Sequence record: LC768500.1
Strand: one strand, 5' to 3'
DNA from: Klebsiella phage phiKp_32
Length of the DNA stretch: 64,000 nucleotides
Below the pieces are notes generated by a model that was given only the letters and a program-made list of their open reading frames with translations, was not told the DNA's origin and ran no database searches. Positions 13,143 through 56,816 of the stretch are shown here, piece by piece; the first letter of the stretch is position 1, and every line of letters begins with the position of its first letter. The translations under genes were made by a program, and so were the position numbers.

Positions 13143-13161
13143 ACTACGAGGAAATGAAAAA

Positions 13162-23544: not shown

Positions 23545-23576
23545 TACTCCTACTCCCGTAATAGGGAGTAGGAGTA
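23545..23576 (+). terminator. Terminator, member of the conserved CTCCTACTCCC hairpin family
   Basis: tactcctactccc-gtaata-gggagtaggagta; 13-bp perfect stem. Confidence 0.7.
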
Positions 23577-23631: not shown

Positions 23632-23639
23632 TATAAATA
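23632..23639 (+). promoter_or_regulatory. T4-late-promoter-like TATAAATA box
   Basis: Exact TATAAATA in the AT-rich gap upstream of the TnpB element. Confidence 0.3.
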
Positions 23640-23839
23640 GCTCTAGCGCAATATATTAGGCCTTCGGCCTAAAGGGCTAGGGTAAGTCTATTCGTTCGTT
23701 TCAGCATCAATCAAGGTATTCGCTACGCTCATACTTTCTTATGCTGATCGATGGGTAGAAAATCTTTCTATTTTAGTTAAATACCAGTTAAAACGGGTTT
23801 GGGCGACGTCTTTTTGAAAATTTAACTAGTGGCTATCAT

Positions 23840-25123
23840 CTTGGTACTTAACTTATTTAATTTAAACTCTATATCATAAAGTCGGAGGAACTTATTATGT
23901 TTATTTCTAAACGAGGTAAACTCCGGCTCTATAAAGAGGACGTGGAGTTAGTTAATCGCACCTTTGGTTGTCGGAGATTTGTATGGAATCAATTATTGGG
24001 TTTACACAAAGAGCGATATGAAAAATGGAAGGAAAATAATAACTTAGAAAAACCCACAGTTTCTATTTCTGCATTGAGAGAAGATTTTAAACGTATTAGA
24101 TCGGAGCATTCTTGGTTAAATGAAGTAAGTTCTGTTGCTTTATATGAGACCATTACTGATCTTTATAATGCCTTTCAACGCTTCTTCAATAATCAATCCG
24201 GTTACCCTAAGTTTAAATCTAAGAGAGGCGCGCAGACTTTTCGTATCACCTCTAGGGTCAACCTGCGGGTCGAGGGTAATATGGTTAGGTTACCCAAATC
24301 CAATTGTTATTCGATATTCTCTAAAAATACTGTCTTAAATGATCCTTCTTCTTATACCGTTACTAGGGATAGCGTAGGCGATTATTTCATCTCTTTCGTA
24401 GACCAAATTGATGAGATAGAGCCAGAACCCGAAAGTAAGGGCAAACATGTAGGGATCGATTTAGGAATTAAATCCTTAGCGATTGTTAAACCTAGTAAGG
24501 GAGAACCTTGGGAATTAATCAACCCTAGAACGTATACGAAATATCAAAAACGCAGAACGACGCTACAACGCCGTTTAATGAAAAAGAAGAAAGGGAGTAA
24601 AAACAGAAACAAAGCTAGAATTAAATTAGCGAAGTTAGAACGTAAAGTTGCTAATATTCGTAAAGATCTTTTACACAAATTTACGACTACACTGATTAAA
24701 GAAAACCAAATGATCAGTATCGAAGATTTAAATGTAAAAGGGATGTTAAAAAACCATAGCTTGGCTAAACATATTCAGGATTGTTCTTTTGGTACAATTA
24801 GAACGATGCTGGAATATAAAGCTAAACGTTATACTCGAAATAAAACGATCACCATCGTTAATCGGTTCTTTGCAAGCACTCAACTTTGTTCTCAGTGCGG
24901 TGTTCTCCCTAAAGAGCGTATCGGACTTAAAATCAGGAACTGGGTATGTTGGAACTGCGGCACTAAACACGATAGAGATATTAACGCTGCTACGAATATC
25001 CTTAACCAAGGATTACGTTTAACAACCTCCTAGGTTAAGGGTATTTATTACCCTTGGTCTGAGGGGAAGTTAAGCCTGTGGAGACAAGTTGCAGTAAGGA
25101 CTTTCTATGAAGCAGGAAGTTGA
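23840..25123 (+). mobile_element. IS605-family TnpB-only (IS1341-like) element, copy 1
   Basis: Ends are approximate. Inferred from where sequence similarity to copy 2 begins (about 55 nt upstream of tnpB) and ends (conserved gaagcaggaagttga 90 nt past the tnpB stop). Confidence 0.5.
23897..25033 (+). CDS. tnpB: TnpB (OrfB) RNA-guided endonuclease-family protein
   Basis: RuvC-I GIDLGIKS, RuvC-II ISIEDLNVKGM, zinc finger CSQCG...CWNCG, RuvC-III HDRDINAATNI. 378 aa. Confidence 0.85.
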   Translation: MFISKRGKLRLYKEDVELVNRTFGCRRFVWNQLLGLHKERYEKWKENNNLEKPTVSISALREDFKRIRSEHSWLNEVSSVALYETITDLYNAFQRFFNNQSGYPKFKSKRGAQTFRITSRVNLRVEGNMVRLPKSNCYSIFSKNTVLNDPSSYTVTRDSVGDYFISFVDQIDEIEPEPESKGKHVGIDLGIKSLAIVKPSKGEPWELINPRTYTKYQKRRTTLQRRLMKKKKGSKNRNKARIKLAKLERKVANIRKDLLHKFTTTLIKENQMISIEDLNVKGMLKNHSLAKHIQDCSFGTIRTMLEYKAKRYTRNKTITIVNRFFASTQLCSQCGVLPKERIGLKIRNWVCWNCGTKHDRDINAATNILNQGLRLTTS

Positions 25124-25145
25124 AATATACAAGACATCTTACACT
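25010..25145 (+). ncRNA. Putative omegaRNA (TnpB guide RNA) derived from the element's right end
   Basis: A segment overlapping the 3' end of tnpB and extending 90 nt past it is conserved with copy 2 (ggttaagggtattta..ttggtctgagggga.gttaagcctg.ggag...gaagcaggaagttga). It is followed by a copy-specific sequence, aatatacaagacatcttac..., that would serve as the guide. Confidence 0.45.
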
Positions 25146-25308
25146 CACCCATGCAACCTGGAGAGAAACCCCGACTGAACAAAGTTGTTTATTCCTTCTC
25201 AGGGGAATAAACAGTTCGTCGGCTAAAGACATAGGATGTTTTATGATCAGTAAAGAAATACGATAATCTAAACTTATTAGTTCAAACACTGTAATCTAGG
25301 AGATAACC

Positions 25309-26331: not shown

Positions 26332-26372
26332 TCTTATGCAATATTTTTAATCTTAAAACGTGGGGTGGGTAA

Positions 26373-26755: not shown

Positions 26756-26792
26756 TATTTTACTTGTATTCTTTTTTGGATCGATATTATTT
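26756..26792 (+). promoter_or_regulatory. Sigma70-like promoter candidate (TTTTACTTGTAT cassette, copy 1)
   Basis: TTTTACTTGTAT immediately after the terminator, with gatattat about 17 nt downstream. The same cassette recurs at 56138 and 56674. Confidence 0.4.
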
Positions 26793-26829
26793 ATGTGTAA
26801 ACCTCAATAACTTTTTAGGAATCAACATC

Positions 26830-30997: not shown

Positions 30998-33136
30998 ATG
31001 ACCACACCTACCCAATTACCGATTCCCAGCAATAACTTGCTGGATTCGAGATTTAACTTTGAAAAGCTCGATCAGATTGTTAATAGCGACGCGAACTATT
31101 ACCTTGATCGATTTGGTAAACAACGACTCACCTCGGCCGGATTGGAAGATTTAGCCAGACGATTATCTGAAGATTATGAATCCACCCTATCTAATCAGGA
31201 TGGGTATAAGAAAATGGGGATGGTGTCTGATTTTACTACTCTCAGAACTATCGCCCCAACAATGGAAGGTCAGCGCATTCTACTCAGGTCGGTCGACGCT
31301 GGTTCGAATAATGGATCGGGAGAGTTTATAGGACATTTAGGGAACGGTGGGGTTGACGACGGGGTTAATGTCGCGGTGGGATCCAACTTCTATTGGGAGA
31401 GACTTTCGACTGATTTTGTTAAATCTTCTTCTATAGGTGATTACGCCCGGATTAACTCCTTTATTTCAGCCGGAAATAAGAAGATCACTGTCGATGCCGA
31501 TCTCAGCGGGTGGCTTAACGTCAAAAGTAACACCACGATAACTTTTAACCCATTGTGTCGGCTGATACCTGATACCGATGACAAAGTAGGTATAAGTATT
31601 AGAGGAGCCGCCCCAACCTCCTATGTTAATCTAGCTACTGATGCATTAGGGATAGATGGCTCAATTACCACCACTAATGACGTTTTTAACATTGGCGATT
31701 GGTTGGAAATTAGATCCAACAAAATTCTTCCCGGCGCGAATTTTTATCAGGTTAAGCAATCTGTTTTACGCAAAGTGCTTCGTAAAACACAAAATGGAAA
31801 TGGAACTTGGACATACCGTCTCCACAGTAGTTTAGGTTATAACTTTAACGTCAGCGACGGTGCTTCCGCTGGGGTTGCGACAGTATTGGAAAATATTGTT
31901 ATCGATGGGGCTAACTTAAATAAAGACAATTTCACCAATATCTTCACCATAGGGATAAACTGTTATTACGTTTATAACCTCACTATAAAAAATATCAACC
32001 TATTCGGAACAAAAGTAAAGGATTCTGCCTCAGACACTCCAGGAAGATCCGGAATAAAACTGTATAATTGCGTTAACGTTAGAATCGATAATGTGAACGC
32101 CTCTTATATAGGGTGGTATGGTGTAGAGGTTATGGGATGCAGTGAAAACGTAGATGTAAATCGTTTATACGGCGTGGATTGTCGACATACCGTTTCCATG
32201 AACTGGATCGAATCTGGTGACCTTTATGGCGGACCTATGTGGGTTTCGGTAAGGAACTCAGCAAGTCACGCTGCAAGATTAAGTGGGTTTGACACTCATG
32301 ATCTAGGAAAGGGGATCGCATTTATTAATTGTCAGAGCTTCGATTCCGGCGACGATGGATTCCAAGTAAGGGCGATGGACACCGTTCTAATCGATTGTCA
32401 TGCTGAAGGATCGACACTTGATGGGTTCGGCGGAGCTACTGGCGCAAAGAACAGCAAATTAGTAAACTGTTCTTTCAACTACAACGTCAGATACGGAATT
32501 AACTTAGGTTATGAAGGTGGTATTGTTATCGACTGTGACGTCGATAATAACGGTTACATGGGGATTTGTACCATCGGCGGACTTATCCAAGGAGGCTCGG
32601 TCACCAATAATTATCCGGCTGCTATCGATATAGGTGCCGGATTTAATGCCGCCCAAACCGATCTCAAAATCGATGGTGTTAGAATGCCCTCTTCGACCGC
32701 CCAGACAAAAATTTTGAGTTTTGCTGGTGACGCGGTAGCCGCTAACAACAAACCTGAGCTGGTCAGAATGGAAAATTGTTACGTTCCTGGTTACGGAAGA
32801 GATTGGGCCCGACTGGTATCGTTCACCGTCCAACCTTTACCTCCGGTGCTTAATAATAATCTACTTACTTCCAGCTTAACCTCCCCTGGAAAAATAAGCG
32901 GGCAAGTCCAATTATCTGCAGGGACGGCCACGGTAACAACCACAGAGGTTTTCTCACAACTTGGTAGCGGCGCAAATGTTTTAAAATACTCATCGCAGAT
33001 TAAGTTGAAACCTATCGCTCGTTCTGCCAATATAGGCGCTCATTATGTTTCAGCAATCAACAACGGGACGTCCTTTGTAATCAATTCAACCAATTCCTCG
33101 GATGGCTCGACCATTTATTGGGAAATAACACTTTAA
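30998..33136 (+). CDS. Tailspike/tail-fibre paralogue 1 (beta-helix, putative depolymerase)
   Basis: Shared N-terminal motif MTTPTQLPIPS...FNFEKLDQIVNSD..YLDRFGKQRLT. Body has repeated xxNC/xxDC beta-helix rungs (VIDCDVDNNG, FINCQSFDSG). Confidence 0.75.
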   Translation: MTTPTQLPIPSNNLLDSRFNFEKLDQIVNSDANYYLDRFGKQRLTSAGLEDLARRLSEDYESTLSNQDGYKKMGMVSDFTTLRTIAPTMEGQRILLRSVDAGSNNGSGEFIGHLGNGGVDDGVNVAVGSNFYWERLSTDFVKSSSIGDYARINSFISAGNKKITVDADLSGWLNVKSNTTITFNPLCRLIPDTDDKVGISIRGAAPTSYVNLATDALGIDGSITTTNDVFNIGDWLEIRSNKILPGANFYQVKQSVLRKVLRKTQNGNGTWTYRLHSSLGYNFNVSDGASAGVATVLENIVIDGANLNKDNFTNIFTIGINCYYVYNLTIKNINLFGTKVKDSASDTPGRSGIKLYNCVNVRIDNVNASYIGWYGVEVMGCSENVDVNRLYGVDCRHTVSMNWIESGDLYGGPMWVSVRNSASHAARLSGFDTHDLGKGIAFINCQSFDSGDDGFQVRAMDTVLIDCHAEGSTLDGFGGATGAKNSKLVNCSFNYNVRYGINLGYEGGIVIDCDVDNNGYMGICTIGGLIQGGSVTNNYPAAIDIGAGFNAAQTDLKIDGVRMPSSTAQTKILSFAGDAVAANNKPELVRMENCYVPGYGRDWARLVSFTVQPLPPVLNNNLLTSSLTSPGKISGQVQLSAGTATVTTTEVFSQLGSGANVLKYSSQIKLKPIARSANIGAHYVSAINNGTSFVINSTNSSDGSTIYWEITL

Positions 33137-33194
33137 CCTTTGCTGGATGGTGATTGGTCGACGCCGGTCTAAAACTAATTTGTTAGGATCATTT

Positions 33195-33228
33195 AAAATC
33201 CAACCGGTCTTAAGACCGGTTGGATTTT
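33195..33228 (+). terminator. Stem-loop terminator between tailspike genes
   Basis: aaaatccaaccggtc-ttaa-gaccggttggatttt. Confidence 0.6.
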
Positions 33229-33270
33229 ATGCTTACCGATATTTCAACCTTCCTGACCCGAGGAATAGCA

Positions 33271-35502
33271 ATGACTTTACCAACGCAAAAACCTATTCCG
33301 AGTTCATCCATAACTGATCAATTATTTAATGCCGAAAAGATAGATCAGGTTGTTAACTCGGATGAACTAGAATATTCCGATCGTTTCGGAAAGAAACGAT
33401 TCACCTTTTCAGGATTATACAACGTTGTGCAGAATTGGATCAGCAGTTTGGGTTCCAGTTCAGGGGCGTCAGCCGTAGGTCTTAGCCAGGGCGGGACGGT
33501 TCAGGCCGGCCTCTATAACGTTGTTAATGTCGAACAATTTGCTTATCTCAATATTTCAGATGATGATTGGGGTCCGGCTTTTAGAGGGGCCAGGGATAAA
33601 GCAATTGAGATATCGGCTCCGGCGGTTACTTTTAAAGGTCACTACAAAATAAAAGTAAGCTCCGGCCCGACCACTCACACCCTGCCTTTCGACGACGGAA
33701 CTTACGATACAAGAAGAACTGGCGAAGTTCTACTTTCTCCAGAAACCTTGAACACAATGCCTGTGGGATTGGAATGGCCTTCCGGACTCTCCCTGAAATC
33801 AGAAGGGATCGGAAACAACTCAATTACTTTTGATTGGGATAATACCACTGTTGGGTTGTCTCAGGGGATTGGGATCTGTATCAGGGTCAGAAACTGGGAC
33901 GGAACTTATCTTGCTAAGGCCGGCTCAGTTAATCGCATGAATAGCGATATAGCCAATGTGGAGTTTGATGGGTTTAGCGTAAATAACGCCTTTATCGGAA
34001 TACTGGCTGATGGTATCGTGGGATCGGTCAGTTGGGGCAGCCTCCAGTTTAAGAAATGTTTCTTACCTATGACTTGGCAGGGCGCCGACAGATGCACGAT
34101 TAAGAAACTGAGATTTACAGATTGTCCGACTGGATTCTCGGTAGGTGGATGGTGGTTGACCCGTAACGACATCTCAGGATCCAATACCGGGCTGGGGGTT
34201 CCGCCTTATGTTGCTGGAACCGACGTGTACTGCATCGGCTGGATGGACTTCGTTAAAATTGAATCTCTGGAGTATTCTAATAGTACTTCGTTTGACAATT
34301 CCCCGTTGTTTGCCGCGGTAGATACTTTCTTCGACACCTATTTCTACAAAAGCGCGAACAGCGCTAGAACTGCTAGTGGTGGTCGATGCACTAATACAGG
34401 TCCTAACCTAACTAGCGCGAGTACGTTAGCGGCAGATTCTCCGTTCTTAGGTATCGCCGGGCGTGCTCACTCACAAATGGGGCGTTACCACCGAAATCAC
34501 ATCTTGAATGAAATTATTTCTCTCAAGACCTGGGGATGTTTCAGGGCATCGGTCCTTACCACGGCTAATGGAAACTCGGAGCTCAATGTCCCGGGGTGCA
34601 TAGTGGGTACCGCGTACATCGAACAGGCCTGTAAGGTCACGGTTGGCGGTGACGCCACGGTGGGGGGAAGTAATGACTTCGTTACATCAGGTAAAGATGT
34701 TTGGAAAGGGACAAAAACTTATTCTAAGTATTATGCTGGTGAAGGATCCGTAATCGTTAAAGATGGATGGTCTGTTAATAGTTTGGGTTTGTTCCCGTCG
34801 GCGCGGACTGTTGCAAGAAACGATAACGGGTATAATAACAGACTAAGAAGGACAATTGTCGACGATGGTACAGGGAAACCGGTCATACTCGAACAGCTTT
34901 CTGAAACGGTCTATGCGACCCCTCCTCAGAAATTTATTCCCAACGCCGTCGGTTCAGTGGACGATAAGTATTACTGGGTTCAGTTTGAGAAGAACGTTTC
35001 TTCAAAGGCCGCTCTTTATTCTGGTGTTCCGACAACGGCTGCGCAAACACCTATAACAGCTCCGGCGATTAAAGTAATAATGGAACGCCTAGGTAACCGA
35101 GTTAAATTAAAAATTAATTTGGATGCGTCAAATTATGCAGCTGGCGGCAGTAATCCGGTGGTAATCGGATTTACTGGGATTTATAAGCCCATTATTGCTA
35201 CGAGTTCCGATTATGCCCTCGGCGCATACGGCCCGGTGAGACCCATAATGGTCAGCACCAAAACATTTACGGTTACTGATTCTACTTCAGTGAGCCGGAC
35301 GTTTAGGATCGAGCCGGTAGCGCATCAAGCTGGGGTGTTCACTGATGGCGCCGGGGTTAATAACTACTACTTTGTTTTGCTCACCCAGCATCATACTTCT
35401 GACACTAATAGACTGTTGTGGTCGGATTTCACCGGTTCGTTATGTCAGATAGAAATAGAATATGATACGAATGACACTATCACTTCATCCAGCGTATTTT
35501 AA
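33271..35502 (+). CDS. Tailspike paralogue 2
   Basis: Start refined to ATG 33271 (MTLPTQKPIPS...FNAEKIDQVVNSD..YSDRFGKKRFT). The tracked TTG extension lies inside the terminator. Confidence 0.75.
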   Translation: MTLPTQKPIPSSSITDQLFNAEKIDQVVNSDELEYSDRFGKKRFTFSGLYNVVQNWISSLGSSSGASAVGLSQGGTVQAGLYNVVNVEQFAYLNISDDDWGPAFRGARDKAIEISAPAVTFKGHYKIKVSSGPTTHTLPFDDGTYDTRRTGEVLLSPETLNTMPVGLEWPSGLSLKSEGIGNNSITFDWDNTTVGLSQGIGICIRVRNWDGTYLAKAGSVNRMNSDIANVEFDGFSVNNAFIGILADGIVGSVSWGSLQFKKCFLPMTWQGADRCTIKKLRFTDCPTGFSVGGWWLTRNDISGSNTGLGVPPYVAGTDVYCIGWMDFVKIESLEYSNSTSFDNSPLFAAVDTFFDTYFYKSANSARTASGGRCTNTGPNLTSASTLAADSPFLGIAGRAHSQMGRYHRNHILNEIISLKTWGCFRASVLTTANGNSELNVPGCIVGTAYIEQACKVTVGGDATVGGSNDFVTSGKDVWKGTKTYSKYYAGEGSVIVKDGWSVNSLGLFPSARTVARNDNGYNNRLRRTIVDDGTGKPVILEQLSETVYATPPQKFIPNAVGSVDDKYYWVQFEKNVSSKAALYSGVPTTAAQTPITAPAIKVIMERLGNRVKLKINLDASNYAAGGSNPVVIGFTGIYKPIIATSSDYALGAYGPVRPIMVSTKTFTVTDSTSVSRTFRIEPVAHQAGVFTDGAGVNNYYFVLLTQHHTSDTNRLLWSDFTGSLCQIEIEYDTNDTITSSSVF

Positions 35503-35517
35503 CATTTAAGGTGTGAT

Positions 35518-37704
35518 ATGACACTCCCAACACAAAACGCCGTTCCTAGTTCAGCTAAGAACGACCAGCTCTTTAATGCTGAGAAGATAGACCAGGTCGT
35601 TAATAGCGACGACCTCCAATATACTGACCGTTTCGGTAAGAAGCGATTTACTTTTACCGGGCTTTACAATATCATCCAGAATTGGATGGGTGGCATTAGT
35701 GGGCTCACCGGAGCAAACAACGTAGGGACGTTATCTGGTCTGTCCGTTCAGTCCGAATTGATTGGAGTACAGTCGGTAGAAGCTTTGCGATCACTTGAAC
35801 CGACTTATACGGATCAGAGAGTAAAGGTTTTGAGATCATCCCCCACCGGGGTTATTTTGAATCACGACGTTTACTATGATTCATCCGATAAAACTTCATC
35901 GGATAACGGATACTCGGTCTTTGTTACTCCCAATGGGAATAGGTGGAAGACCGATATTACCAACGGGTATAACCCATTATTTTTAATAGGGCAGGAAGGG
36001 TACACTGACATATCGTCTGCGATTAACAAAATCGCCTATGATCTGGCGGTACGGTGGGGTAATAATAAAGGCGTAATAGACTTCTGCACCACTATAAGGA
36101 TTCCGGGTAAGTTATTTGGTCAAACACGATATAACGTGACCGGACCTATCCATATCCCGTCGTTCGTTTCCCTAAGCATGGACGTTGACACATACTTTGA
36201 TTACTATACCGTGACTAACACAGACGGGATTATTATCGATAATAGTTATTTCCCGATGCTGTTAGACTCGGCGTACGATCCGTCTACTGCAGCCAGACCA
36301 AGATCAGTCCTATTATGGGAAGCGTCCAGAGAAGTCTTTATTGGCGGGAGACTCATCTTAACCCACCCTATAGGGTCGTCAAGAACATCTAATACCGGAA
36401 TAACGATAGGGAATACCGCTAGCGGATTCATAGATGTCAGAGGGTGTAATTTAAACAATTTTGAATGTTTTGGATTTTATTTCGGGATAAAAATAAATCC
36501 AATTGATGTTTATATCAACTCATTCTCCCGATTCCATTTAGGCCGCAACTATAACGCTGTTGCGGTTTTAGGAGATACAAAGACTAACGCCGGGGAAAAA
36601 TTTAATTTCAGTAACGCCACGATCTCCGATTCAGATTCCGACTTAATTTACATTGAGAATAACGGATTTGAATTGTTCTTTTCTGACGTGTCCTTAGACT
36701 ATCCAACAGGTGATCTAGTAAAAATCACCAAACTCGGTAATGCTTACGTCTCTTTCAATCAGTGCCATATTGAAGGCGTCCAGGGCATGTTAGTGAATGT
36801 AACAGGTTCTACTCTTTTTCCAAAATACGGAAAGAGAATCGTATTTTCGAATTGCATGATTGATATTTCTTCAGGGCAAAGTACCTGGAACAGAACTTGG
36901 TTCTTCTCCTCAACCATCAATACTTTCGTAATGGTGGATAAAACAACCAGGTTCTGGCCATCGACCGCTACGCTCAATTCGAGTAAAACCGCGTATCATT
37001 CTCTTATTAATAACGGTTCTCCAGCAAATAACGCCATTACTTTAGATTACCAATTATCAGACGAAGACCTTATTGACGCATCTACCTTTGTCCTGGGTCA
37101 GTTTAAGCCGGTAGGTGTCAACAAGAGGGTTATAAGTACCAATTCTTATTCCGGTACCGTCGGGAACGCCTACACTGGAGGGAGTTCTTCCACTGATTCT
37201 TGGGGTTGGTATATAGTCAACGGATCGTGGACTTATGCTTCAGCCGATGCATCCGATGGCGATGGTTTGCAGGCGATTTCTTTAACCTCGGACGATGCGA
37301 CTAAAAGCTTTTTCGTAATGTGTTCGCTACCGTGGAACACATTACCTCAAGAGAAATTTAGAGCGCTGGGCGCCATTAAGGTGTATAGCGGGTATACCGG
37401 CTCGGTAAACGTTTCTTGTCTAGTCGAGGCTCATAGTTTGCTGACAATGAACAGTACAGCAGTGGCCGATAATGTGATAGCGACTACTTACAGTCCGGCG
37501 GTAGATGTAGCGGCATTGGCCGCTGCGAATTCCAGGGTCGGTATGTTCCAAGGTTTCTGCACGCAAGCGGCCCAGGTTAACTCATATAGTAATTCTACTC
37601 ACCCGTTACAATTTGTTAGAGTAGGGTTTAAAATAACTGGATTCACTGGAACGATTGAATTGAAGTTACCGACGGTAACCAGTCATAGACTGCTGACAGC
37701 TTAA
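35518..37704 (+). CDS. Tailspike paralogue 3
   Basis: MTLPTQNAVPS...FNAEKIDQVVNSD..YTDRFGKKRFT. Beta-helix-like body. Confidence 0.75.
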   Translation: MTLPTQNAVPSSAKNDQLFNAEKIDQVVNSDDLQYTDRFGKKRFTFTGLYNIIQNWMGGISGLTGANNVGTLSGLSVQSELIGVQSVEALRSLEPTYTDQRVKVLRSSPTGVILNHDVYYDSSDKTSSDNGYSVFVTPNGNRWKTDITNGYNPLFLIGQEGYTDISSAINKIAYDLAVRWGNNKGVIDFCTTIRIPGKLFGQTRYNVTGPIHIPSFVSLSMDVDTYFDYYTVTNTDGIIIDNSYFPMLLDSAYDPSTAARPRSVLLWEASREVFIGGRLILTHPIGSSRTSNTGITIGNTASGFIDVRGCNLNNFECFGFYFGIKINPIDVYINSFSRFHLGRNYNAVAVLGDTKTNAGEKFNFSNATISDSDSDLIYIENNGFELFFSDVSLDYPTGDLVKITKLGNAYVSFNQCHIEGVQGMLVNVTGSTLFPKYGKRIVFSNCMIDISSGQSTWNRTWFFSSTINTFVMVDKTTRFWPSTATLNSSKTAYHSLINNGSPANNAITLDYQLSDEDLIDASTFVLGQFKPVGVNKRVISTNSYSGTVGNAYTGGSSSTDSWGWYIVNGSWTYASADASDGDGLQAISLTSDDATKSFFVMCSLPWNTLPQEKFRALGAIKVYSGYTGSVNVSCLVEAHSLLTMNSTAVADNVIATTYSPAVDVAALAAANSRVGMFQGFCTQAAQVNSYSNSTHPLQFVRVGFKITGFTGTIELKLPTVTSHRLLTA

Positions 37705-37765
37705 TCGGCCGCTGGTAGATCGTTTCTTATTCTGGTTAGCCGGCGTCTTCTTCCGTTTACTAGGT

Positions 37766-37789
37766 TATCGGGCTTTTAAAGGCCCGATA
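37766..37789 (+). terminator. Possible terminator hairpin
   Basis: ttatcgggc-ttttaaag-gcccgataa-like stem. Confidence 0.4.
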
Positions 37790-37856
37790 GTTATAATTGA
37801 TGGACGGGTGTAGCGACCGAATCTCTTTAGTCATTTTGGTATTTCAATCATTAATC

Positions 37857-37885
37857 TAACACCCCGTGTTCAACACGGGGTGTTA
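37857..37885 (+). promoter_or_regulatory. 12-bp hairpin immediately upstream of the RBS of the next tailspike gene
   Basis: taacaccccgtg-ttcaa-cacggggtgtta, then aggag and ATG 37897. Confidence 0.45.
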
Positions 37886-37896
37886 GGAGTCTTTCA

Positions 37897-40169
37897 ATGA
37901 CACAGCCAACTAAGAATCCTATTCCCAGTGGGAATATATTAGATCAAATTTTTAACGGGGAAAAGATCGACGAGGTGGTGAACAGCGATAATGAGCAATA
38001 CTCAGACCGTTTCGGTATTAAACGTTTCACAGTAACGGGACTTGCGAAGTTAGTTAAAGATCTTATTGCATCTATCTCCGGTGTGGGTGGCGCGGCTAAC
38101 GTAGGATTGGCTCAGGGAGGAAATATCCAACAGGCGATATCTTATATCACGCCTGAAATGTCAGGAATCGTCACCGGTGTCGGAAATGCGGATGACGACA
38201 CGTCAGCAATACAATGGGCTTTTAATCAAAACCTCCCCATCGTCTTTAACCCTAAAAAGGTTTACCACATAAATCCTGGGGTTATCACTCACGTCGGTGC
38301 TGTAGATGTCAAGGCCTCCACCGCTACCTTTGTTTCTGACGGTCCTGCTTTTGAGATCATAGATTGCGACGGTAGTCAATGGGACGGGGGTATTTTTGTT
38401 TCGCAAACTATTCCGTGGACCGTTGTGTACGATGCCGGGTTCAATGTGATAGAGTCCGGAAGATTGGGGTATGGTAGGATGCCTTATCAGGACAGCGGGG
38501 TCGATCCGAATTTTCTATATCAAAAAATAGCCTGCTCTTTAATTTTTAGATCGTCTGATCAGTCTGTGAAAGACGGACTTCTGGTTAAAAATATTAAAGG
38601 GAGTTACGCTAATATAGTCTGCGCTGGCTTTAAAAATACGGTTTTTGACAATTTAGAGATTAGAGGGGGGCTTTAGGGGCAGCTCTTCTTATCCTTAATG
38701 ATTGCGAACAACCGGTTCTTTCTGGTTTTGGGTGGAATGCGGGGGCGGATACAAGTAAAGGTAATAGTTTTAAATGGGGTAGAGGAACTAATCACATTAT
38801 TAAGAATTCGAAGTTTTTCGAATCCAGACAAATGGGTCTGGCCATTATGGGGTCGGATAATATAATATTATCCGATATTTGGACTTATGACAACGCCGAA
38901 TCCGGAATACAGACCGGTCAATATTCGGCAGCCTACCCCCAAGAATCAATAATTTCCAAACACATAACCCAAAAAGGATGTCTGTCGTGGGGCAACTATT
39001 ACGACGGGTTTGACCACGCCACCGTCACGTCTGGTGCCAACGGTCCTTATTTTGAAAAACACCTGAACATGATTGGTAACCAGGCGTTCAATAATAGAGC
39101 TACTGGGATGGTGGTCCAAGGAAACTTTTTACAAATTAATAATAATGAGTTCTCTGTTAACGGAACACACGGGGTTTCTATAAGAGATTCATCGGTTATA
39201 GATGTTTCCGACAATATCATGTACAAGAACGGAGCGATTTCCGGTGGGTATGGGTTGGTAGTTGTCGGGACCGATAGTTTGATTAAAGACAATACCATTA
39301 TTAACGACGAAACACTTGCAAACTCACATATTGTTAATATTTCCGTGGGTAATCAAGCAAGAAAAATTTTCGATGTTAAATTTATTACCTCCCTAATTTC
39401 AGTTCGTTCTTCCCCTACAATGGTTATTGGAAATGGTGTCGATATATCGTACACCAAAACAACTTCTAATGGAGCGGTTACATCCAGCGGTACAAAATCA
39501 AGTTTGGTTAAAGGGGATTTTGTCGCAGGAAAAACTAACAGTGAGTTTTACGATGATGAGTTTGGCGCTGTTCAGGCTTGGAAGCACCCTTATACCGGGT
39601 CGTATTTAAGATTAGGTCCCCTGGATACAGGCAGAACGACTAACGGGCCTTTTACAATAAGTTACAATAGGGGTAAAAACACAACTGCTCCTACTGGATA
39701 TTCTGATAACACAGGGATAGGGTCCACCGAATTAATATTTAATCCCACGTCGTTTATGCTGAATATCTATGCAGCCAATAGCCCGATAACCCCAGTCGTG
39801 GGTTACTCATTTAATACGACTAGTGTAAGACCAACGATTACCAATTTTGCTACTTTAGGAGAAAACAATTACCGGTTCAAAACTCTATATTTAAACTCCT
39901 TCGTTATTTCAGACTCAGGAATAATCCCTGAACAAACAAATATCGTTGATTTGGGTTCGGGCACAAAACGGATAAGAACAGGTTATTTTAACGCCCTCGA
40001 TCTTAGCACTTCGCCTAAAATAGGGAGTGGTGAAGCGGCGGTTATTGTTCAGCCTCCCGCGACTTCAACTTCGAATGGGACGAAGGGGCAGATTGCTTAT
40101 GATACCTCCTATATTTATTTGTGTGTTTCGGCCAATACCTGGATGAGATCACCATTATCATCTTGGTAA
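37897..40169 (+). pseudogene. Tailspike paralogue 4, split into two ORFs (37897..38676 and 38832..40169) by a frameshift at a G6 tract
   Basis: The N-terminal ORF carries the shared anchor motif (MTQPTKNPIPS...FNGEKIDEVVNSD..YSDRFGIKRFT); the second ORF is a beta-helix body with no anchor. A +1 nt slip in GGGGGG (38665-38670) joins the two frames with no stop across 38671-38831. Confidence 0.55.
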
Positions 40170-40179
40170 TAACATAATT

Positions 40180-40212
40180 CGATATCTCGACGGATAATCC
40201 GTCGAGATATCG
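40180..40212 (+). terminator. Stem-loop terminator
   Basis: cgatatctcgacgg-ataat-ccgtcgagatatcg; 14-bp stem. Confidence 0.65.
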
Positions 40213-40287
40213 ATAATTTTATGCTGATCTAAATTCAGTAGACTTGCGCAAGTCTTTTATACTACATTCTTTTAAAGGAGTAACCTC

Positions 40288-42846
40288 GTGGCTACAACTC
40301 CAACTACGGGTGACATCCCCAGCAATGCTGCGGTGGACCTCAAGTTTAACTCGGAACAATTCGACCGAGTAATGAATTCTGACGATCTGACTTATACGGA
40401 TCGTTTTGGTAAAAAACGCATTACAATGAAAGGGGTTCAGGAACTCGCTAATGGCTTCCAGGATACTTTCACCAATCTGTTGGGTTCTCCCGACGGGTTT
40501 AAACTGATCGGCGGAGTAAAGTCTTTTGACACCCTGAGATCAACCCCAGTGAAAACCGAAGGTCAGCGTATTTTCCTCAAGTCTTACTATCAAGATGGAG
40601 TCGACGGCGGTGGGCTCTTCATAGGACACATCGGAACCAAGTTAGATGACTCCGGAACCGTTGCCCAGGGAGTTAACTACTACTGGGAGCGAGTTCTAGG
40701 CGGAATTACACCCACGGTAGAGATGTTCGGTTGCCCTAACAGCACGACTGTTGACGCCGGCCCTTATATCACTTTAGCGCTAGGAGTTGTTGGCGAAGTA
40801 CGTTTACAGGATAGAACGTATTACGTGGACTCGGCGGATATTCCATCGGGCAGCAGGATTGTTTCTTTGGGTGGGGCTGTGATAAGGCCGTTAACCTCCA
40901 ATGCTTCTGCTAAATTTAACCTAGGTTCTGGAAGAGAAAAAATAAGATTTGAGAATATTAAATTCTCTGATCCGGCCGGCCTCGTTACCAGTGAAGACGC
41001 CCTTTTAATAAATGCCGAAAGCATCACCGGATTGACTATTACCAATTGCACCTTTGAAGGTTTAAAGCAGCGTTGTGTTAGAGTTAGAAATGGTTCCGGG
41101 ATAAAAATTACCGATAACAAATTCAGAGGAAGTCTCCCGCATTCTCAATTAAGCGATGAAAGATCCGCTGAGATTTATCTGGTTGACACCCTAGCACACG
41201 TGATCGTCTCTAATAATCAGTTCTATGGGACCGACAGTGGGTTATGGGGGTCTAGAGAAATTGGGGTGTTTGTTCACGCGGTTACGTCAGGGGCGTATTG
41301 GAATGACGTGCATATCGTGTCCAACTACTTCGAAAACTATCGTCGGTTTGGTATAGGCGTGGGAACTCAGGATATAGGAACCCTAGACCAGTTATCAAAA
41401 AATGTATGGATTACCGAAAATACAATTATTAACTCCGGCCAAGAAGGGATCAAAATGAAAGCCGGGTCGATAGTCCATGTTGATAACAACACTGTCGACG
41501 GATTTGAAGGAATAATGGCTGAGGTGCCGGATTCCTTGAACGGCGGAATTTTCATGCAAATTAACGCCGAGTCTACTTGTAACGGCAACCGTATTTATGG
41601 GAAAAATAAGAAGTTATGGTCCGGTGCCGTAACTTCGGCCACTGGTACAACAGTTTCTCTTCCCACAAGTAACTGGACGACATATACGATATCAGCAACC
41701 CAAGGTAGCGGAGTCAGTACCATTGCCGGCAAGTATGTTTATATAAGTTCAGGAACTGGAGTGGGTCAGTGGCGCCGGATTTCTAGCTGGAACAGCACGA
41801 CCAATATGGCTACCGTCAACACCGCATGGACGACCGTTCCGGATACGACCAGCGTGATAGAAGTTTATAGCAACCCCTCCATGGGCATAAAGTATCGCGG
41901 GAATAACACGGGTGGGTCCACCTGGGCCGATAGTAGAACCGCAAGATGCTTCCAAAGCATGAACAACTATGTGGAAGGCTGCGAGGTGGGATTTGGGTTA
42001 TCCGAACCCCTTTTCAATTGCCAATTCGGCTCACTTCATGCCCAGAACTGTAGAGCGATACTAAAAACTTATTCTGGAACGCTGAAAACAACCCGCGGGA
42101 TTCAGTTCTTTGGACTGACGGGCCAGTATCTTGACTACCCGTCCACTGACAACTCATCCGCCATAACCTTTACAGACTGTAGCCAAATCGAAATACATGG
42201 CTTAAAAATTTCTGGAAGTTATTACGATGGGTTGAGGTTATCAAATGTCGACAACTTTAAAATTTTCGGCGGTGTTGTGGAAGGATGCGGGATGGGGGTC
42301 AGCGGTCGTTACGGCCTGGCTATTGCTGGTGGTGTGACTAACTTCGAATCACACGGTGTGACCTACGGCGGGGCCAATGCGGGAGCTGGACAAAGCTACG
42401 CCGCATTTTTCCAGAATACTAATAGCGGAATATCCTTCTTCGGCGGCAGTATGCTGGGTAACGTTGCGGGAGTGTTTAACCCAGGGTCGTCTGGAGCTCT
42501 GTATCCTCCAAGAGATACTGTCTTTAGCGGGGTAGCTGGGGCGGGTCAGATTAAGGGCGTGACTCTCGTAGATAATGCGTCCAAAGTAATTGTCCCCGGT
42601 ACTGATAAAGACACTGTTTTATTTAATACCGCGCTGACCGCGATTAGAACAGTAACTTTCTCCACAGCCTTTGTTGAAGATGGTTGCGTGTACACCATCT
42701 GTAGATCGGCCGCCGCCACGGGGAGTTTTGCTCTCAACGTAGTGACCGCGGTAGGAACACAAGCCCTCGCAGCAGGCTCCTACCTAAGAGTTATTTACTC
42801 GAGTACGCTAGGTTGGATTCCTGTTTCCTACGGTTTATTGAGTTAA
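40288..42846 (+). CDS. Tailspike paralogue 5 (pectate-lyase-like beta-helix)
   Basis: GTG start with RBS aaggag. MATTPTTGDIPS...FNSEQFDRVMNSD..YTDRFGKKRIT. Rungs NCTFEG, ITDNKFRG, ITENTIINSG, VDNNTVDG. Confidence 0.75.
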   Translation: MATTPTTGDIPSNAAVDLKFNSEQFDRVMNSDDLTYTDRFGKKRITMKGVQELANGFQDTFTNLLGSPDGFKLIGGVKSFDTLRSTPVKTEGQRIFLKSYYQDGVDGGGLFIGHIGTKLDDSGTVAQGVNYYWERVLGGITPTVEMFGCPNSTTVDAGPYITLALGVVGEVRLQDRTYYVDSADIPSGSRIVSLGGAVIRPLTSNASAKFNLGSGREKIRFENIKFSDPAGLVTSEDALLINAESITGLTITNCTFEGLKQRCVRVRNGSGIKITDNKFRGSLPHSQLSDERSAEIYLVDTLAHVIVSNNQFYGTDSGLWGSREIGVFVHAVTSGAYWNDVHIVSNYFENYRRFGIGVGTQDIGTLDQLSKNVWITENTIINSGQEGIKMKAGSIVHVDNNTVDGFEGIMAEVPDSLNGGIFMQINAESTCNGNRIYGKNKKLWSGAVTSATGTTVSLPTSNWTTYTISATQGSGVSTIAGKYVYISSGTGVGQWRRISSWNSTTNMATVNTAWTTVPDTTSVIEVYSNPSMGIKYRGNNTGGSTWADSRTARCFQSMNNYVEGCEVGFGLSEPLFNCQFGSLHAQNCRAILKTYSGTLKTTRGIQFFGLTGQYLDYPSTDNSSAITFTDCSQIEIHGLKISGSYYDGLRLSNVDNFKIFGGVVEGCGMGVSGRYGLAIAGGVTNFESHGVTYGGANAGAGQSYAAFFQNTNSGISFFGGSMLGNVAGVFNPGSSGALYPPRDTVFSGVAGAGQIKGVTLVDNASKVIVPGTDKDTVLFNTALTAIRTVTFSTAFVEDGCVYTICRSAAATGSFALNVVTAVGTQALAAGSYLRVIYSSTLGWIPVSYGLLS

Positions 42847-42854
42847 TTAATCCA

Positions 42855-42878
42855 AGAGGGAGATTTAGATCTCCCTCT
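42855..42878 (+). terminator. Stem-loop terminator
   Basis: agagggagat-ttag-atctccctct. Confidence 0.55.
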
Positions 42879-42894
42879 ACCTAAAAGGTGAGTT

Positions 42895-44412
42895 ATGACT
42901 ACCCCAACTAATAACAATATACCGAGTAACTCGGTTCAAGACCGATTATTCAACGCAGAAAAATTTGACGAGTTTATCAACTCTAACAACACGTCTTTTA
43001 CAGACCGTCTTGGGATCAGCAGAACGACGTTAAACGGGATTAGACAAAACGTTTCTAATTGGATGACGTCGTTTTCCACTGAAAACGGGGCGGAGAATGT
43101 CGGATATAGAACCTCTAATGTGGGAGATGTTCTTTCCCGTATGAGGACAATGAGTGACTCGGGTCTTCCGCGTCCTTATCTGGGGTATTCTTCGACTAAC
43201 GACCTTGCTATTTTTACAGAGCAGGGCGCTCTTCGCGATACCGATCTTCTTTTGAATGGTTCGATCACCATAGGTAGGAAATTCCGTAGTATTCGCAGGC
43301 ACGCGACCGCATTGAGTTTACGAGGTGGCCGAGCTTCATCAGGAGATACTGGAGTCTTCAATGCTCAGGTTACGGGTGCGCAGAACGCCAGGGGCGTAGC
43401 TGCATATGGGTTGAATGATGGCGTAACATTATTTGCCGACGCCTTAGCTCCAGCACTGGAAGACTGGGAAACAGTTGATACTGCGTCATATACCGCCACG
43501 ACTGTTACGGTCAGCCCATCGGTGTATTCTTCTTTCCTGACCAACGCCCTAGTTGGTGACGTCATTCAGACACTCCACCCCACTAAATGTTGGGGGTTGA
43601 TTACCAGTATAAACAAAACCACTGGTGTGGTGACAGTTGATGAATGGGCGACAGCTGATGGGGCCACTCTAACACCGACTTCGGGCGTGGGGTTCAACGT
43701 CAACCTGATTAATAAAGTTTGGGCTATCAACGCCAACACTATCATTAACAGCAACTCTGCCGCCGATAATGCCGTAATATGCGAATTTGGGGCGGTGATC
43801 AATAAGTCTGGAGCTTCGCTAAACGGTATCGATATTCCGCTGCTCCAACAAAGCCTCTATGATGGTGTGGCTGGCGTACTGGTTCGCCCTGCGAGCACTT
43901 CAGCTAAAACATGGTTGTACGGTGTCCGTTCAACTAATAACAGAATGAACTTCTATGCGTCCGGCGCCACGTATAATAACTACGTATCGACCGGGTCTGC
44001 GCCAGTCGGAATAAGATTTTCTGGAATGCCCACTTATTCGATGGTGTTCAGCAAATCTTCCGATATGACAGATATGTCGTATGTTAACTCGACGATGATT
44101 TACGATGGATACGGTAGACGTCTGCGCAATATGACTAAGTACAGTGTGCTTACGACGAATACAACGCTGAATGCGCTCATTCCTTGTTATCTGATAAATG
44201 CAGCCGGGATAACTCTGACAATGCCGGCTATAAGTAATATGTCTTCAGGTCATTTTTACGAATTGAAGATACTTAGGGCTGGAACATACTATATCACCGC
44301 CAACGCCCAGGAAGTCAACGTAAGTGGTTACGCTACGTACCCTTTAACTGTCACCACCCCAACTAAAGTAGAGGTTTGGTACGATGGATCGACCTGGATA
44401 ATTGTTCCTTAA
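42895..44412 (+). CDS. Tailspike/tail-fibre paralogue 6
   Basis: MTTPTNNNIPS...FNAEKFDEFINSN..FTDRLGISRTT; the anchor is divergent but recognisable. Confidence 0.7.
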   Translation: MTTPTNNNIPSNSVQDRLFNAEKFDEFINSNNTSFTDRLGISRTTLNGIRQNVSNWMTSFSTENGAENVGYRTSNVGDVLSRMRTMSDSGLPRPYLGYSSTNDLAIFTEQGALRDTDLLLNGSITIGRKFRSIRRHATALSLRGGRASSGDTGVFNAQVTGAQNARGVAAYGLNDGVTLFADALAPALEDWETVDTASYTATTVTVSPSVYSSFLTNALVGDVIQTLHPTKCWGLITSINKTTGVVTVDEWATADGATLTPTSGVGFNVNLINKVWAINANTIINSNSAADNAVICEFGAVINKSGASLNGIDIPLLQQSLYDGVAGVLVRPASTSAKTWLYGVRSTNNRMNFYASGATYNNYVSTGSAPVGIRFSGMPTYSMVFSKSSDMTDMSYVNSTMIYDGYGRRLRNMTKYSVLTTNTTLNALIPCYLINAAGITLTMPAISNMSSGHFYELKILRAGTYYITANAQEVNVSGYATYPLTVTTPTKVEVWYDGSTWIIVP

Positions 44413-45900: not shown

Positions 45901-45935
45901 ATAACTCCTACTCCCTTATCGGGAGTAGGAGTTAT
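45901..45935 (+). terminator. Terminator, member of the conserved CTCCTACTCCC family
   Basis: ataactcctactccc-ttatc-gggagtaggagttat (15-bp stem), then tttaa. Confidence 0.75.
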
Positions 45936-52262: not shown

Positions 52263-52285
52263 TTTATCAGCAAGACACATTATCT
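52150..52285 (+). ncRNA. Putative omegaRNA of TnpB copy 2
   Basis: Same conserved scaffold as copy 1, followed by a different 3' sequence tttatcagcaagacacattatc. Confidence 0.45.
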
Positions 52286-52299
52286 TTTCGGAGTAATCA

Positions 52300-56085: not shown

Positions 56086-56118
56086 TAACTCCTACTCCCT
56101 TATGGGAAGTAGGAGTTA
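56086..56118 (+). terminator. Terminator, conserved CTCCTACTCCC family (one bulge)
   Basis: taactcctactccc-ttat-gggaagtaggagtta followed by a T9 run. Confidence 0.7.
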
Positions 56119-56137
56119 TACCATGACTTATTTTTTT

Positions 56138-56168
56138 TTACTTGTATTTCATCATAAACCTATATAAC
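56138..56168 (+). promoter_or_regulatory. Sigma70-like promoter candidate (TTTTACTTGTAT cassette, copy 2)
   Basis: -35 TTACTT, 17-nt spacer, -10 TATATA. About 55 nt upstream of ATG 56224. Confidence 0.45.
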
Positions 56169-56223
56169 TTAAGTACATAAACATAAAACTTTATTAATTA
56201 AACCGTCTACGAGGATTTTTAAC

Positions 56224-56658: not shown

Positions 56659-56673
56659 TGGAATATTTATTTT

Positions 56674-56704
56674 TTACTTGTATATTTTTATGAATCTTTA
56701 ATAT
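56674..56704 (+). promoter_or_regulatory. Sigma70-like promoter candidate (TTTTACTTGTAT cassette, copy 3)
   Basis: TTACTT, 17 nt, TTTAAT or TAATAT. Confidence 0.4.
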
Positions 56705-56816
56705 CTAAGTGTAAAATGAAACAGTCATTAGTCTTATATGGTTGTTTTTTCCTAACCGAGAAAATGGATGTTCTCGGTCTTTTTTAATATGGAATATAAT
56801 TTTAGGAAATCTGATC

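Follow-up and report, generated by a model that had tools for sequence, protein, structure and literature searches.

Two tnpB copies and their omegaRNA genes

Analysis of 64,000 nucleotides (nt) of Klebsiella phage phiKp_32 (record LC768500.1; this whole stretch is referred to as the window, and positions are those of the window) indicated that it contains two copies of an element composed of a tnpB gene and an omegaRNA gene at the tnpB 3' end. The window was about 94% identical to Klebsiella phage Miami and to phages KPN8, YC1, BUCTxx100 and VB_ZK_P1, all of them jumbo phages of about 250 kb.

The protein deduced from tnpB copy 1 matched the Pfam families OrfB_IS605 (PF01385, 7.6e-30), Cas12f1-like_TNB (PF07282, 8.6e-20) and HTH_OrfB_IS605 (PF12323, 8.6e-8), all three above the curated cut-offs, and the domains followed the order expected of a TnpB, HTH/WED-REC, then OrfB_IS605 (RuvC), then the zinc-ribbon TNB. 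Alignment with the TnpB of ISDra2 (8h1j/8bf8; E=1.9e-55, residues 8-373) placed D188 of GIDLG, E276 of IEDLN and D359/D361 of HDRDIN onto the ISDra2 motifs GVDVG, TEHL and HDRDEN, which contain D191, E278 and D361. Residues D188, E276, C331/C334, C351/C354 and D359/D361 showed no variation across seven clade members, and both the RuvC triad D188/E276/D361 and the zinc ribbon CxxC...CxxC were complete. The Pfam matches, the ISDra2 alignment and this invariance uphold an earlier, sequence-only reading of the locus, according to which the 378-amino-acid protein is a TnpB with all catalytic signatures; the substitution of RuvC residues that would have spoken against it was not seen on alignment, D/E/D being retained and both open reading frames (ORFs) intact. 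Since the ratio of nonsynonymous to synonymous divergence (dN/dS) between copies was 0.12-0.27, at dS 0.65-2.1, the protein is under purifying selection. The identity of the gene is not new, because NCBI already lists the copy 1 protein (100% identical) as 'IS200/IS605 family element RNA-guided endonuclease TnpB [Klebsiella phage phiKp_32]' and lists copy 2 likewise.

The second copy, which the same reading had placed 27 kb away, was found at 51036-52172, 27,139 nt downstream of copy 1. The two proteins are 63% identical while the phage backbones are 94-97% identical at the nucleotide level; the copies are far more diverged than the backbones and therefore represent independent acquisitions, not a recent duplication. 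Across copies the TnpB proteins are mosaics from two lineages, and the type of the 3' RNA region disagrees with the protein tree, so that copies must recombine among themselves.

As no curated omegaRNA family of Rfam matched (none at the gathering thresholds in the whole window and none at E<=10 in 24700-25250), we built a covariance model of our own. A search of viral contigs with a single TnpB protein gave no matches, and alignment-based searches of viral and metagenome contigs yielded about 160 homologous loci at roughly 40% protein identity. The 3' region of these distant homologues has an architecture, backed by many compensatory changes, that runs from P1 through the strand ...ACGCCTGTGGAG... 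and an inner P3 to GAAGCAGGAAG, which closes the long-range P2, and ends with a GC-rich hairpin and TAGTTCAC. Model R1 was built from 28 distant homologues and no member of the phage clade (phiKp_32, Miami, ZKP1, BUCTxx100 and EL). In the 64 kb it gave two full-model matches, at 25043-25138 (42.1 bits, E=3.2e-8) and 52189-52279 (37 bits, E=5.7e-7), the next-best match in the window having E=0.18, and it matched every other clade copy tested. The candidate omegaRNA proposed earlier is thus borne out by an independent model that matches directly 3' of both genes; of the suggested comparison with IS605/IS1341 omegaRNA models, the Rfam part was negative to E=10 and the part made with R1 was positive.

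The stems assigned in copy 1 were P1 (25051-25055/25062-25066), P2 (25075-25079/25112-25116) and P3 (about 25086-25090/25099-25103), followed by a vestigial AT-rich terminal stem and the right end ...CAAGACAT. Copy 2 retains a 5-bp terminal mini-hairpin, GTTGA-TTTA-TCAGC. Compared with the relatives, the clade has its terminal GC-rich hairpin shrunk to an AT-rich stem of 2-5 bp and its terminus is AAGACAN in place of AGTTCAN. Paired cells made up 92.9% on the R1 alignment, against 77.4% in shuffles (0/500 reached the observed value) and 38-52% in slid controls, the alignment having been fitted to R1 itself, which favours structure. Compensatory changes within the clade are evidence independent of that fit, P3 being kept by AAGT/ACTT in copy 1 and BUCTxx100, by GGGT/ACCC in Miami and ZKP1_a, by GTRC/GTAC in copy 2, ZKP1_b and L094 (a copy with GTAC/GTAC included), and by TCAG/CTGA in EL. 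Folding single sequences (237 nt) gave no useful information (copy 1, z=-1.1). A 7-bp hairpin (AAGGGTA...TACCCTT, 25034-25056) immediately after the tnpB stop codon competes with P1 for the CCCTT strand; it is kept across the copies of the Miamivirus clade and does not occur in phage EL or in the distant homologues. Protein and RNA belong to the TnpB/omegaRNA family, for which every testable feature was found.

Insert boundaries, landing sites and flanking motifs

Phages KPN8, YC1 and Miami do not carry copy 1; their homology to the window ends at 23745 and restarts at 25138 with an overlap of 2 nt (CT), and their empty sites read ...CTTTCTTATG|CTTACACTCACC. The element had been delimited previously as 23840-25145; the empty sites move its left edge 94 nt further left and set its right edge at 25137. 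The Miami empty site for copy 2 reads ...GTTCTACATTATCTTTTCGGAG and delimits that insert in the same manner (Table 1). The two copies have a right end of about 104 nt in common (25034-25137), while on the left side about 40 nt are similar and, in copy 2, all of this except 51019-51035 is backbone in the Miami empty site. Of the shared ends proposed before, about 55 nt on the left and about 90 nt on the right, the right one is extended to about 104 nt and most of the left one is backbone in copy 2. No hairpin was found in the copy 1 left arm, and only the approximately 34 nt adjoining tnpB had a homologue in the phage collection. A scan for sigma-70-type promoters marked 23848-23877 in this arm, where the comparison with published early promoters points to 23861-23877. 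An origin of the extra 115 nt (23746-23860) near the ZKP1_b site, downstream of the major head gene, was considered and the similarity was weak and unconvincing.

The position of the right end also determines the predicted guide. The sequence-only reading had ended the omegaRNA at gaagcaggaagttga and taken aatatacaagacatcttac as the guide; the scaffold continues to 25137 and the guide would instead be CTTACACTCACCCATGCAAC. The segment aatatacaagacat (25124-25137) that was read as guide lies within the insert and aligns inside the omegaRNA model, and it is scaffold because it is conserved in copies at other loci. A right end at GACA was rejected in favour of GACAN, since with no other register do flank and empty allele agree from the first base on (10/10). 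The model alignment backs this register, the final positions of R1 aligning to ...AAGACAT and ending at 25137, the position given by the empty sites. The copy 1 guide would start with CTTACACTCACC... at 25138; its 20 nt are identical in KPN8, YC1 and Miami, where they stand beside TTATG, and its first 16 nt occur once in the window. The 20-mer predicted for copy 2 is likewise identical in the sister-phage empty allele. The predicted cut targets are TTATG-CTTACACTCACCCATG for copy 1 and TCTAC-ATTATCTTTTCGGAGT for copy 2. The left junction of copy 2 itself (51012-51027) retains TCTAC and differs from the first 16 guide nt at three positions (13/16), and self-protection of this copy would therefore rest on three mismatches. 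An ORF of 48 amino acids (25120-25266), unannotated in Miami, starts with TTG inside the omegaRNA terminus and continues across the guide; where the insert is missing, this frame opens with the ATG of TTATG. The motif reported for late promoters or starts in phiKZ is TATG.

Table 1. Positions of the tnpB copies, their omegaRNAs, predicted guides and target sites in the window (TAM, transposon-associated motif; RBS, ribosome-binding site)
Feature	Position	Strand	Remarks
Unoccupied target of the L176 copy (GAGGAAAT, RBS)	13148-13155	+	tnpB copy present in metagenome contig L176
TAM-like TTATG	23739-23743	+	Backbone; directly 5' of the copy 1 target in the empty allele
CT, left copy of the 2-bp target duplication	23744-23745	+	Overlap of 2 nt in BLAST of occupied and empty alleles
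Copy 1 insert	23746-25137		1392 nt between duplicated CT; occupied versus empty alleles, BLAST
Copy 1 left arm, 151 nt	23746-23896	+	Not in empty alleles; last ~45 nt similar to other copies
Early-promoter-like motif TTTAAACTCTATATCAT	23861-23877	+	Inside copy 1 left arm; compared with published phiKZ-like early promoters
RBS GGAGG	23885-23889	+	Copy 1 left arm
tnpB copy 1	23897-25033	+	378 aa; TAM-reading segment of 'LYET' type
omegaRNA scaffold, copy 1	25043-25137	+	Model R1 and covariation; right end matches empty-site junction
Predicted guide, copy 1 (CTTACACTCACCCATGCAAC)	25138-25157	+	First 2 nt are the right CT copy; length of 20 nt assumed
Unoccupied target of the L178 copy (CAATATT after TTATG)	26339-26345	+	L178 also empty at the copy 1 site
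Copy 2 target	51007-51018	+	TAM-like TCTAC (51007-51011) and left ATTATCT of the 7-bp duplication (51012-51018)
Copy 2 insert	51019-52278		Duplicated ATTATCT on both sides; Miami empty site
Copy 2 whole left arm, 17 nt (GGTCGGAGGAACTAAAA)	51019-51035	+	Essentially RBS
tnpB copy 2	51036-52172	+	378 aa; catalytic residues intact; TAM-reading segment of 'LQQS' type
omegaRNA scaffold, copy 2	52189-52278	+	Ends ...CAAGACAC; model R1 and folds
Predicted guide, copy 2 (ATTATCTTTTCGGAGTAATC)	52279-52298	+	First 7 nt are the right ATTATCT copy
Unoccupied target region of the L180 copy	59917-60028 (approx.)	+	In L180 flanked by a duplication of ~112-125 bp

Ten insertion events could be compared with empty alleles, namely copy 1, copy 2, ZKP1_a, ZKP1_b and those of Miami, BUCTxx100, L176, L178, L180 and L094. 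The window itself served as the empty allele for contigs L176, L178 and L180, and L174 as the 'empty' state of the replacement in L094. The right junction was exact at all ten: directly after ...GAC(A/G)N, agreement with the empty allele begins without an intervening base. In L180 four nt a short way into the flank do not match, which makes this junction the least certain of all. The length of insert upstream of the ATG varied (4, 17, 19, 19, 48, 55, 60, about 87 and 151 nt), the shortest left arms being those of L176 (4 nt), copy 2 (17 nt), and ZKP1_b and Miami (19 nt each). Of the subterminal hairpins that IS200/IS605 elements have at both ends, the left one was not found and the right one is the short AT-rich stem. 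These elements insert without target-site duplication, and here duplications of 2, 2, 5, 7, 7, 7-8, 9 and about 112-125 bp were seen, with a 19-bp deletion in one event. Copies of tnpB occupied different loci in nearly every genome, the locus of L094 and L174 being the sole one occupied in two different genomes, and no copy was detected in KPN8 and YC1 by DNA or protein search.

The pentamers preceding the targets in the empty alleles fell into two groups, TTATG (three times, before the targets of copy 1, ZKP1_a and L178), AAATG, CTACG and CTATG in one and TCTAC, ACTAT, CCTAT and TCGAT in the other. L183, flanked on either side by ATTATCT and without an empty allele, would add a second CCTAT. 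The pentamers have a YTAY-like core in common and no single motif; IS200/IS605 elements insert 3' of a fixed tetra- or pentanucleotide. According to published work, the TnpB of ISDra2 reads its TAM, TTGAT, via Y52, S56, K76, F77, Q80, T123 and N124, Q80 bonding the dA at -2. The residue aligned to Q80 is Q ('LQQS/T') in copy 2, ZKP1_b, BUCTxx100, L180, L183 and EL and Y ('LYET') in copy 1, ZKP1_a, Miami, L174/L094, L176, L177 and L178. All five Q-type events, that of L183 included, have the motif NC(T/G)AY with A at -2 as in ISDra2, while in all six Y-type events the motif ends in G. This co-variation is what one would see if each TnpB used the motif as its TAM; every insert would then occupy a position at which its own nuclease could cut an allele without the insert. 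The co-variation with the residue aligned to Q80 is indirect evidence that the proteins may carry out RNA-guided, TAM-dependent cleavage of double-stranded DNA.

Most copies lie 17-65 nt downstream of TTTnAAnCCTAYATTATY, which agrees with the early-promoter consensus published for related phages (EL, WTTTYAAACCTACATTATY; OBP and N1M2, ...KATATTATYWAAGTG; phiKZ, TATATTAC). An early promoter could not be derived from the window itself, where TAYATTAT occurs 4 times against about 7 expected and a search for boxes gave too much noise, so the link to promoters depends on the published consensus and on recurrence of the motif upstream of most copies. The motif belongs to the target in copy 2, ZKP1_b and Miami, the copy 2 target sitting within TTTTTAGTTCTACATTATC, and lies inside the insert in copy 1, L178 and L180. 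The L176 insertion duplicates an RBS, tnpB and the downstream gene each keeping one. ZKP1_a (L005:2700-2760) and the Miami copy (L007:2700-2760) landed just after the start codon of a small gene, and with their right end, GGAAATTGAAAAATATGNGACAN, the downstream gene receives an RBS-like AGGAAA and an ATG in frame, so that it gains three codons and is not deprived of its start. These arrangements suggest that only non-disruptive insertions survive.

Contigs L094 and L174 are 90% identical over 6 kb and have tnpB at the same locus (L094:3700-3760 versus L174:3720-3780). In L094 the 3' part of the omegaRNA has been exchanged for a variant ending ...CAAGACA, joined exactly 3' of CCTAT inside the old right end. 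The replacement leaves tandem right ends and creates a guide predicted to match the L174-type omegaRNA gene. The L094 tnpB ORF is disrupted and truncated to 117 codons.

A Y1 TnpA gene (PF01797, 1.3e-44) lies directly upstream of tnpB at 46 of the distant homologous loci. A hidden Markov model of 47 TnpAs from IS605 loci gave no Y1 TnpA match in the window translated in all six frames (best E 0.58; serine recombinases of the IS607 type were not searched separately) or in the flanks of the relatives, in agreement with the earlier statement that TnpA is missing. Y1 TnpA is missing by definition in the IS1341 subgroup. No group I intron, the mark of an IStron, was found by any Rfam family at gathering score across the window. 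The element lacks three IS200/IS605 features, TnpA, terminal hairpins and insertion without target duplication, and is therefore filed as a TnpB-only derivative working like the TnpB module of IS605 and not as a canonical insertion sequence (IS). Each copy is a minimal selfish cassette, tnpB with an omegaRNA gene in its 3' untranslated region, without transposase and without a functional left end.

Maintenance and spread of the cassette

An RNA-guided homing cassette that spreads independently of TnpA is in our judgement probable, and the homing or competition role proposed before is kept as the most plausible function, nuclease activity and homing being predictions from sequence. Expression, RNA processing, cleavage, homing and colonisation of new sites may be envisaged as follows. 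The tnpB gene would be transcribed together with the surrounding + strand genes, probably starting at the early-promoter-like motif just upstream, which lies within the insert in copy 1 and comes from the target in copy 2. The 3' part of the transcript would become the omegaRNA, that of copy 1 consisting of the scaffold and a guide of about 16-20 nt taken from the adjacent phage DNA. The TnpB-omegaRNA complex would find the same 20 nt in a co-infecting relative without the insert, where TTATG and not ...GACAT precedes the target, and the RuvC site would cut this insert-free DNA. Recombinational repair off the occupied genome would then copy the cassette in, which amounts to homing, with co-conversion of flanking markers or exclusion. 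The replacement of the TAM by ...GACAN before the target in the occupied allele would protect self. New sites, we would guess, arise by illegitimate or short-homology recombination, after which selection favours right junctions that bring the scaffold up against TAM-adjacent sequence; this would fit both the free left side and the way the motif co-varies with the protein.

The idea that TnpB can drive homing is well established in the literature and extends to a proposed non-restorative kind involving co-infecting phages or plasmids. Homing is supported here by an intact gene under purifying selection, by the conserved omegaRNA core, by presence/absence polymorphism among phages 94-97% identical, and by the geometry, the 20 nt after each right end being identical in the empty alleles and standing there beside a motif that co-varies with the TAM-reading segment of TnpB. 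Several observations weigh on the other side. A perfect match of guide and target follows from any insertion and is not independent evidence; with one locus occupied twice, the data show frequent colonisation of new sites, beyond homing alone, rather than homing itself. Homing accounts for maintenance and spread at a given locus and not for the many new loci. An exact right junction beside a TAM-like motif is equally expected from strand transfer by Y1 TnpA. The motif is degenerate, its classes were set after seeing the data, and the 10-11 events are not all independent. The disrupted ORF of L094 indicates that some copies decay, and if a phage nucleus forms as in the phiKZ-like relatives, TnpB would need entry into it.

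The junctions bear directly on the possibility that a non-autonomous IS200/IS605 (IS1341-type) element is moved in trans by a Y1 TnpA of the host or of a co-infecting element. In such a case the left end would be defective, only strand transfer at the right end would be precise, the left side would be resolved by replication or recombination (one-ended), and TnpB would serve for retention only. Exact right junctions at 10/10 events, 3' of a YTAY-like motif, are what TnpA chemistry predicts, the 46 distant loci have Y1 TnpA next to tnpB, and 117 phage records encode a TnpA homologue. However, none was found in the window or the examined flanks, the GC-rich subterminal right-end hairpin of the relatives is cut to the 2-5-bp stem and no left-end hairpin exists, the family does not make target duplications such as those of 2 to about 120 bp seen here, and the flanking motif co-varies with the TnpB protein and not with a left-end DNA guide. 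Transposition in trans therefore appears rather unlikely to us. The geometry of homing is equally that of a domesticated weapon, in which cutting the empty allele of rivals would favour phiKp_32 in mixed infection whether or not the cassette is copied. The free-standing homing endonucleases of T-even phages do likewise, such competition is reported to be mediated by an intron-encoded endonuclease of PhiPA3, a nucleus-forming phage (PMC11620839), and the new guide of L094 would target the omegaRNA gene of the rival L174 variant. Yet the cassette is at a different locus in almost every genome and KPN8 and YC1 have none, the pattern of a selfish mobile element and not of a fixed beneficial gene, and we consider a weapon of this kind improbable. 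An inert relic, or a nuclease-independent regulator resembling TldR, has in its favour the one related copy, L094, with a truncated ORF. It is at odds with two intact ORFs in the window with D/E/D, with strong purifying selection, with an omegaRNA that shows compensatory changes and with recent mobility; TldR proteins are without the RuvC residues (PMC10705468). This last explanation is very improbable. Target-primed reverse transcription would account for the fixed 3' end, the shifting 5' end and duplications of differing length; we set it aside, since a reverse transcriptase is not known in this system and the guide of the donor does not travel with the copies.

Returning to the homing cassette, a wider and more tentative scheme for the phiKZ-like jumbo phages, which we hold to be possible and on balance doubtful, is that tnpB-omegaRNA is a left-end-less, transposase-free cassette whose sole fixed boundary is the omegaRNA 3' end beside a readable TAM. 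One-sided or short-homology events (duplications of 2 to about 120 bp) would spread it into regulatory punctuation, with early-promoter cores (CTAY|ATTATC), ribosome-binding sites and start codons as favoured landing points, and the insert would restore what it displaces; cutting by TnpB would drive the spread and could hit rival variants (L094 versus L174). If spread is indeed independent of TnpA and of a left end, TnpB with its omegaRNA would be a self-sufficient mobile unit, which bears on the persistence of TnpB-only elements and on Cas12-like origins. For the study of what TnpB does in virulent phages, the clade offers matched occupied and empty alleles in cultivable Klebsiella phages (phiKp_32 versus KPN8, YC1 and Miami). 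Since guides, targets and candidate TAMs are defined in matched phages, RNA-guided homing or interference is directly testable. For genome-editing engineers, the existence of two natural TAM specificities that go with a Q-to-Y change at a position known to contact the TAM could likewise be of interest.

Phage genome context and comparison with known systems

Many proteins of these jumbo phages resemble those of the phiKZ-like phages EL and OBP according to annotation notes, and a paper on nucleus-forming phages describes Miami as a distant relative of Erwinia phage RAY. The window encodes virion proteins, an SbcC-like protein, an NAD-dependent ligase and several tail-fibre/depolymerase paralogues; at least four large ones with a common N-terminal module (PHROG matches) lie in 30998-44412. 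Runs of tail-fibre paralogues are typical of Klebsiella jumbo phages with several capsule specificities.

The T4-late-like box TATAAATA, noted earlier upstream of tnpB, is present at 23632-23639, and a role as a T4-late promoter was rejected; it occurs 6 times in the window against 4.6 expected, lies outside the insert and is backbone also found in the empty-site phages YC1 and Miami. Published work indicates that the phiKZ-like group uses its own RNA polymerases, which argues against the T4-late interpretation. A repeat family, D5 (26758-26801, 56136-56179 and 56672-56715), consists of TTTTACTTGTAT, about 18 nt and (G/T)ATATTATYTAAGTGTAAA, with only three clear repeats. The 3' half of D5 agrees with the early-promoter consensus published for OBP and N1M2, the L183-copy target looks alike, and the repeats are probably early promoters of phiKp_32. 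Perfect palindromes CTACTCCTACTCCC-loop-GGGAGTAGGAGTA at gene ends (23545-23576, 45902-45935 and 56086-56119) are terminators in the Miami annotation; one of them lies 170 nt upstream of the copy 1 insert. The intergenic region from this terminator to the copy 1 insertion point (23640-23745) is highly conserved in KPN8, YC1 and Miami. A small hairpin within it, TAGGCCTTCGGCCTA, differs in KPN8 by compensatory changes (GGCCGAAGGCC), and the region may encode a small RNA or act as a regulatory site.

The object is real and for the most part ordinary, and its genes are already annotated; what the comparisons suggest beyond this is a corrected anatomy and an unexpected pattern of spread that appears to be independent of TnpA. 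TnpB homologues were present in 419 of 50,697 phage records, mostly labelled 'transposase', and a limited literature search found no paper linking TnpB with phiKZ-like or nucleus-forming phages.

One of the closest known systems is ISDra2 of Deinococcus radiodurans (IS200/IS605; structures 8H1J, 8BF8 and 8EXA), whose TnpB has the same domain order, size, RuvC D/E/D and zinc ribbon, whose omegaRNA is encoded at the tnpB 3' end and runs into the flank, and whose 5-nt TAM is read by WED/REC. Proteins of the copy 2 type keep the residue aligned to Q80, and NC(T/G)AY resembles TTGAT, whereas those of the copy 1 type have Y at this position and the flanking motif (T/C)TA(T/C)G. The phiKp_32 element further differs from ISDra2 in being without a tnpA partner and without a left-end hairpin, at about 35-40% identity, with variable duplications and in a virulent jumbo phage host. 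The IS1341-group and IS605-type elements of the contigs (L011-L173, about 40% identical) belong to the same family and have the same omegaRNA core (P1, ...ACGCCTGTGGAG..., P2, GAAGCAGGAAG). They differ in that 46 of the loci have an upstream Y1 TnpA and in that the right end is a GC-rich hairpin of 7-8 bp with TAGTTCAC, in contrast to the AT-rich 2-5-bp stem and the terminus AAGACAN of the phage clade.

Among nucleases of virulent phages, the Seg and Mob homing endonucleases of T-even phages and the intron endonuclease of PhiPA3 are comparable in that an intergenic nuclease gene with ill-defined boundaries is polymorphic among relatives. These enzymes are expected to cut the allele without the gene during co-infection (for PhiPA3, PMC11620839). 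Here a guide RNA from the flank, and not the protein, would recognise the target, and the insert that separates TAM from target would mark self. TldR likewise combines a TnpB fold with an omegaRNA-like guide and is found in phages; it has lost the RuvC residues and targets host promoters, whereas phiKp_32 retains these residues and has a guide that corresponds to flanking DNA of the phage itself.

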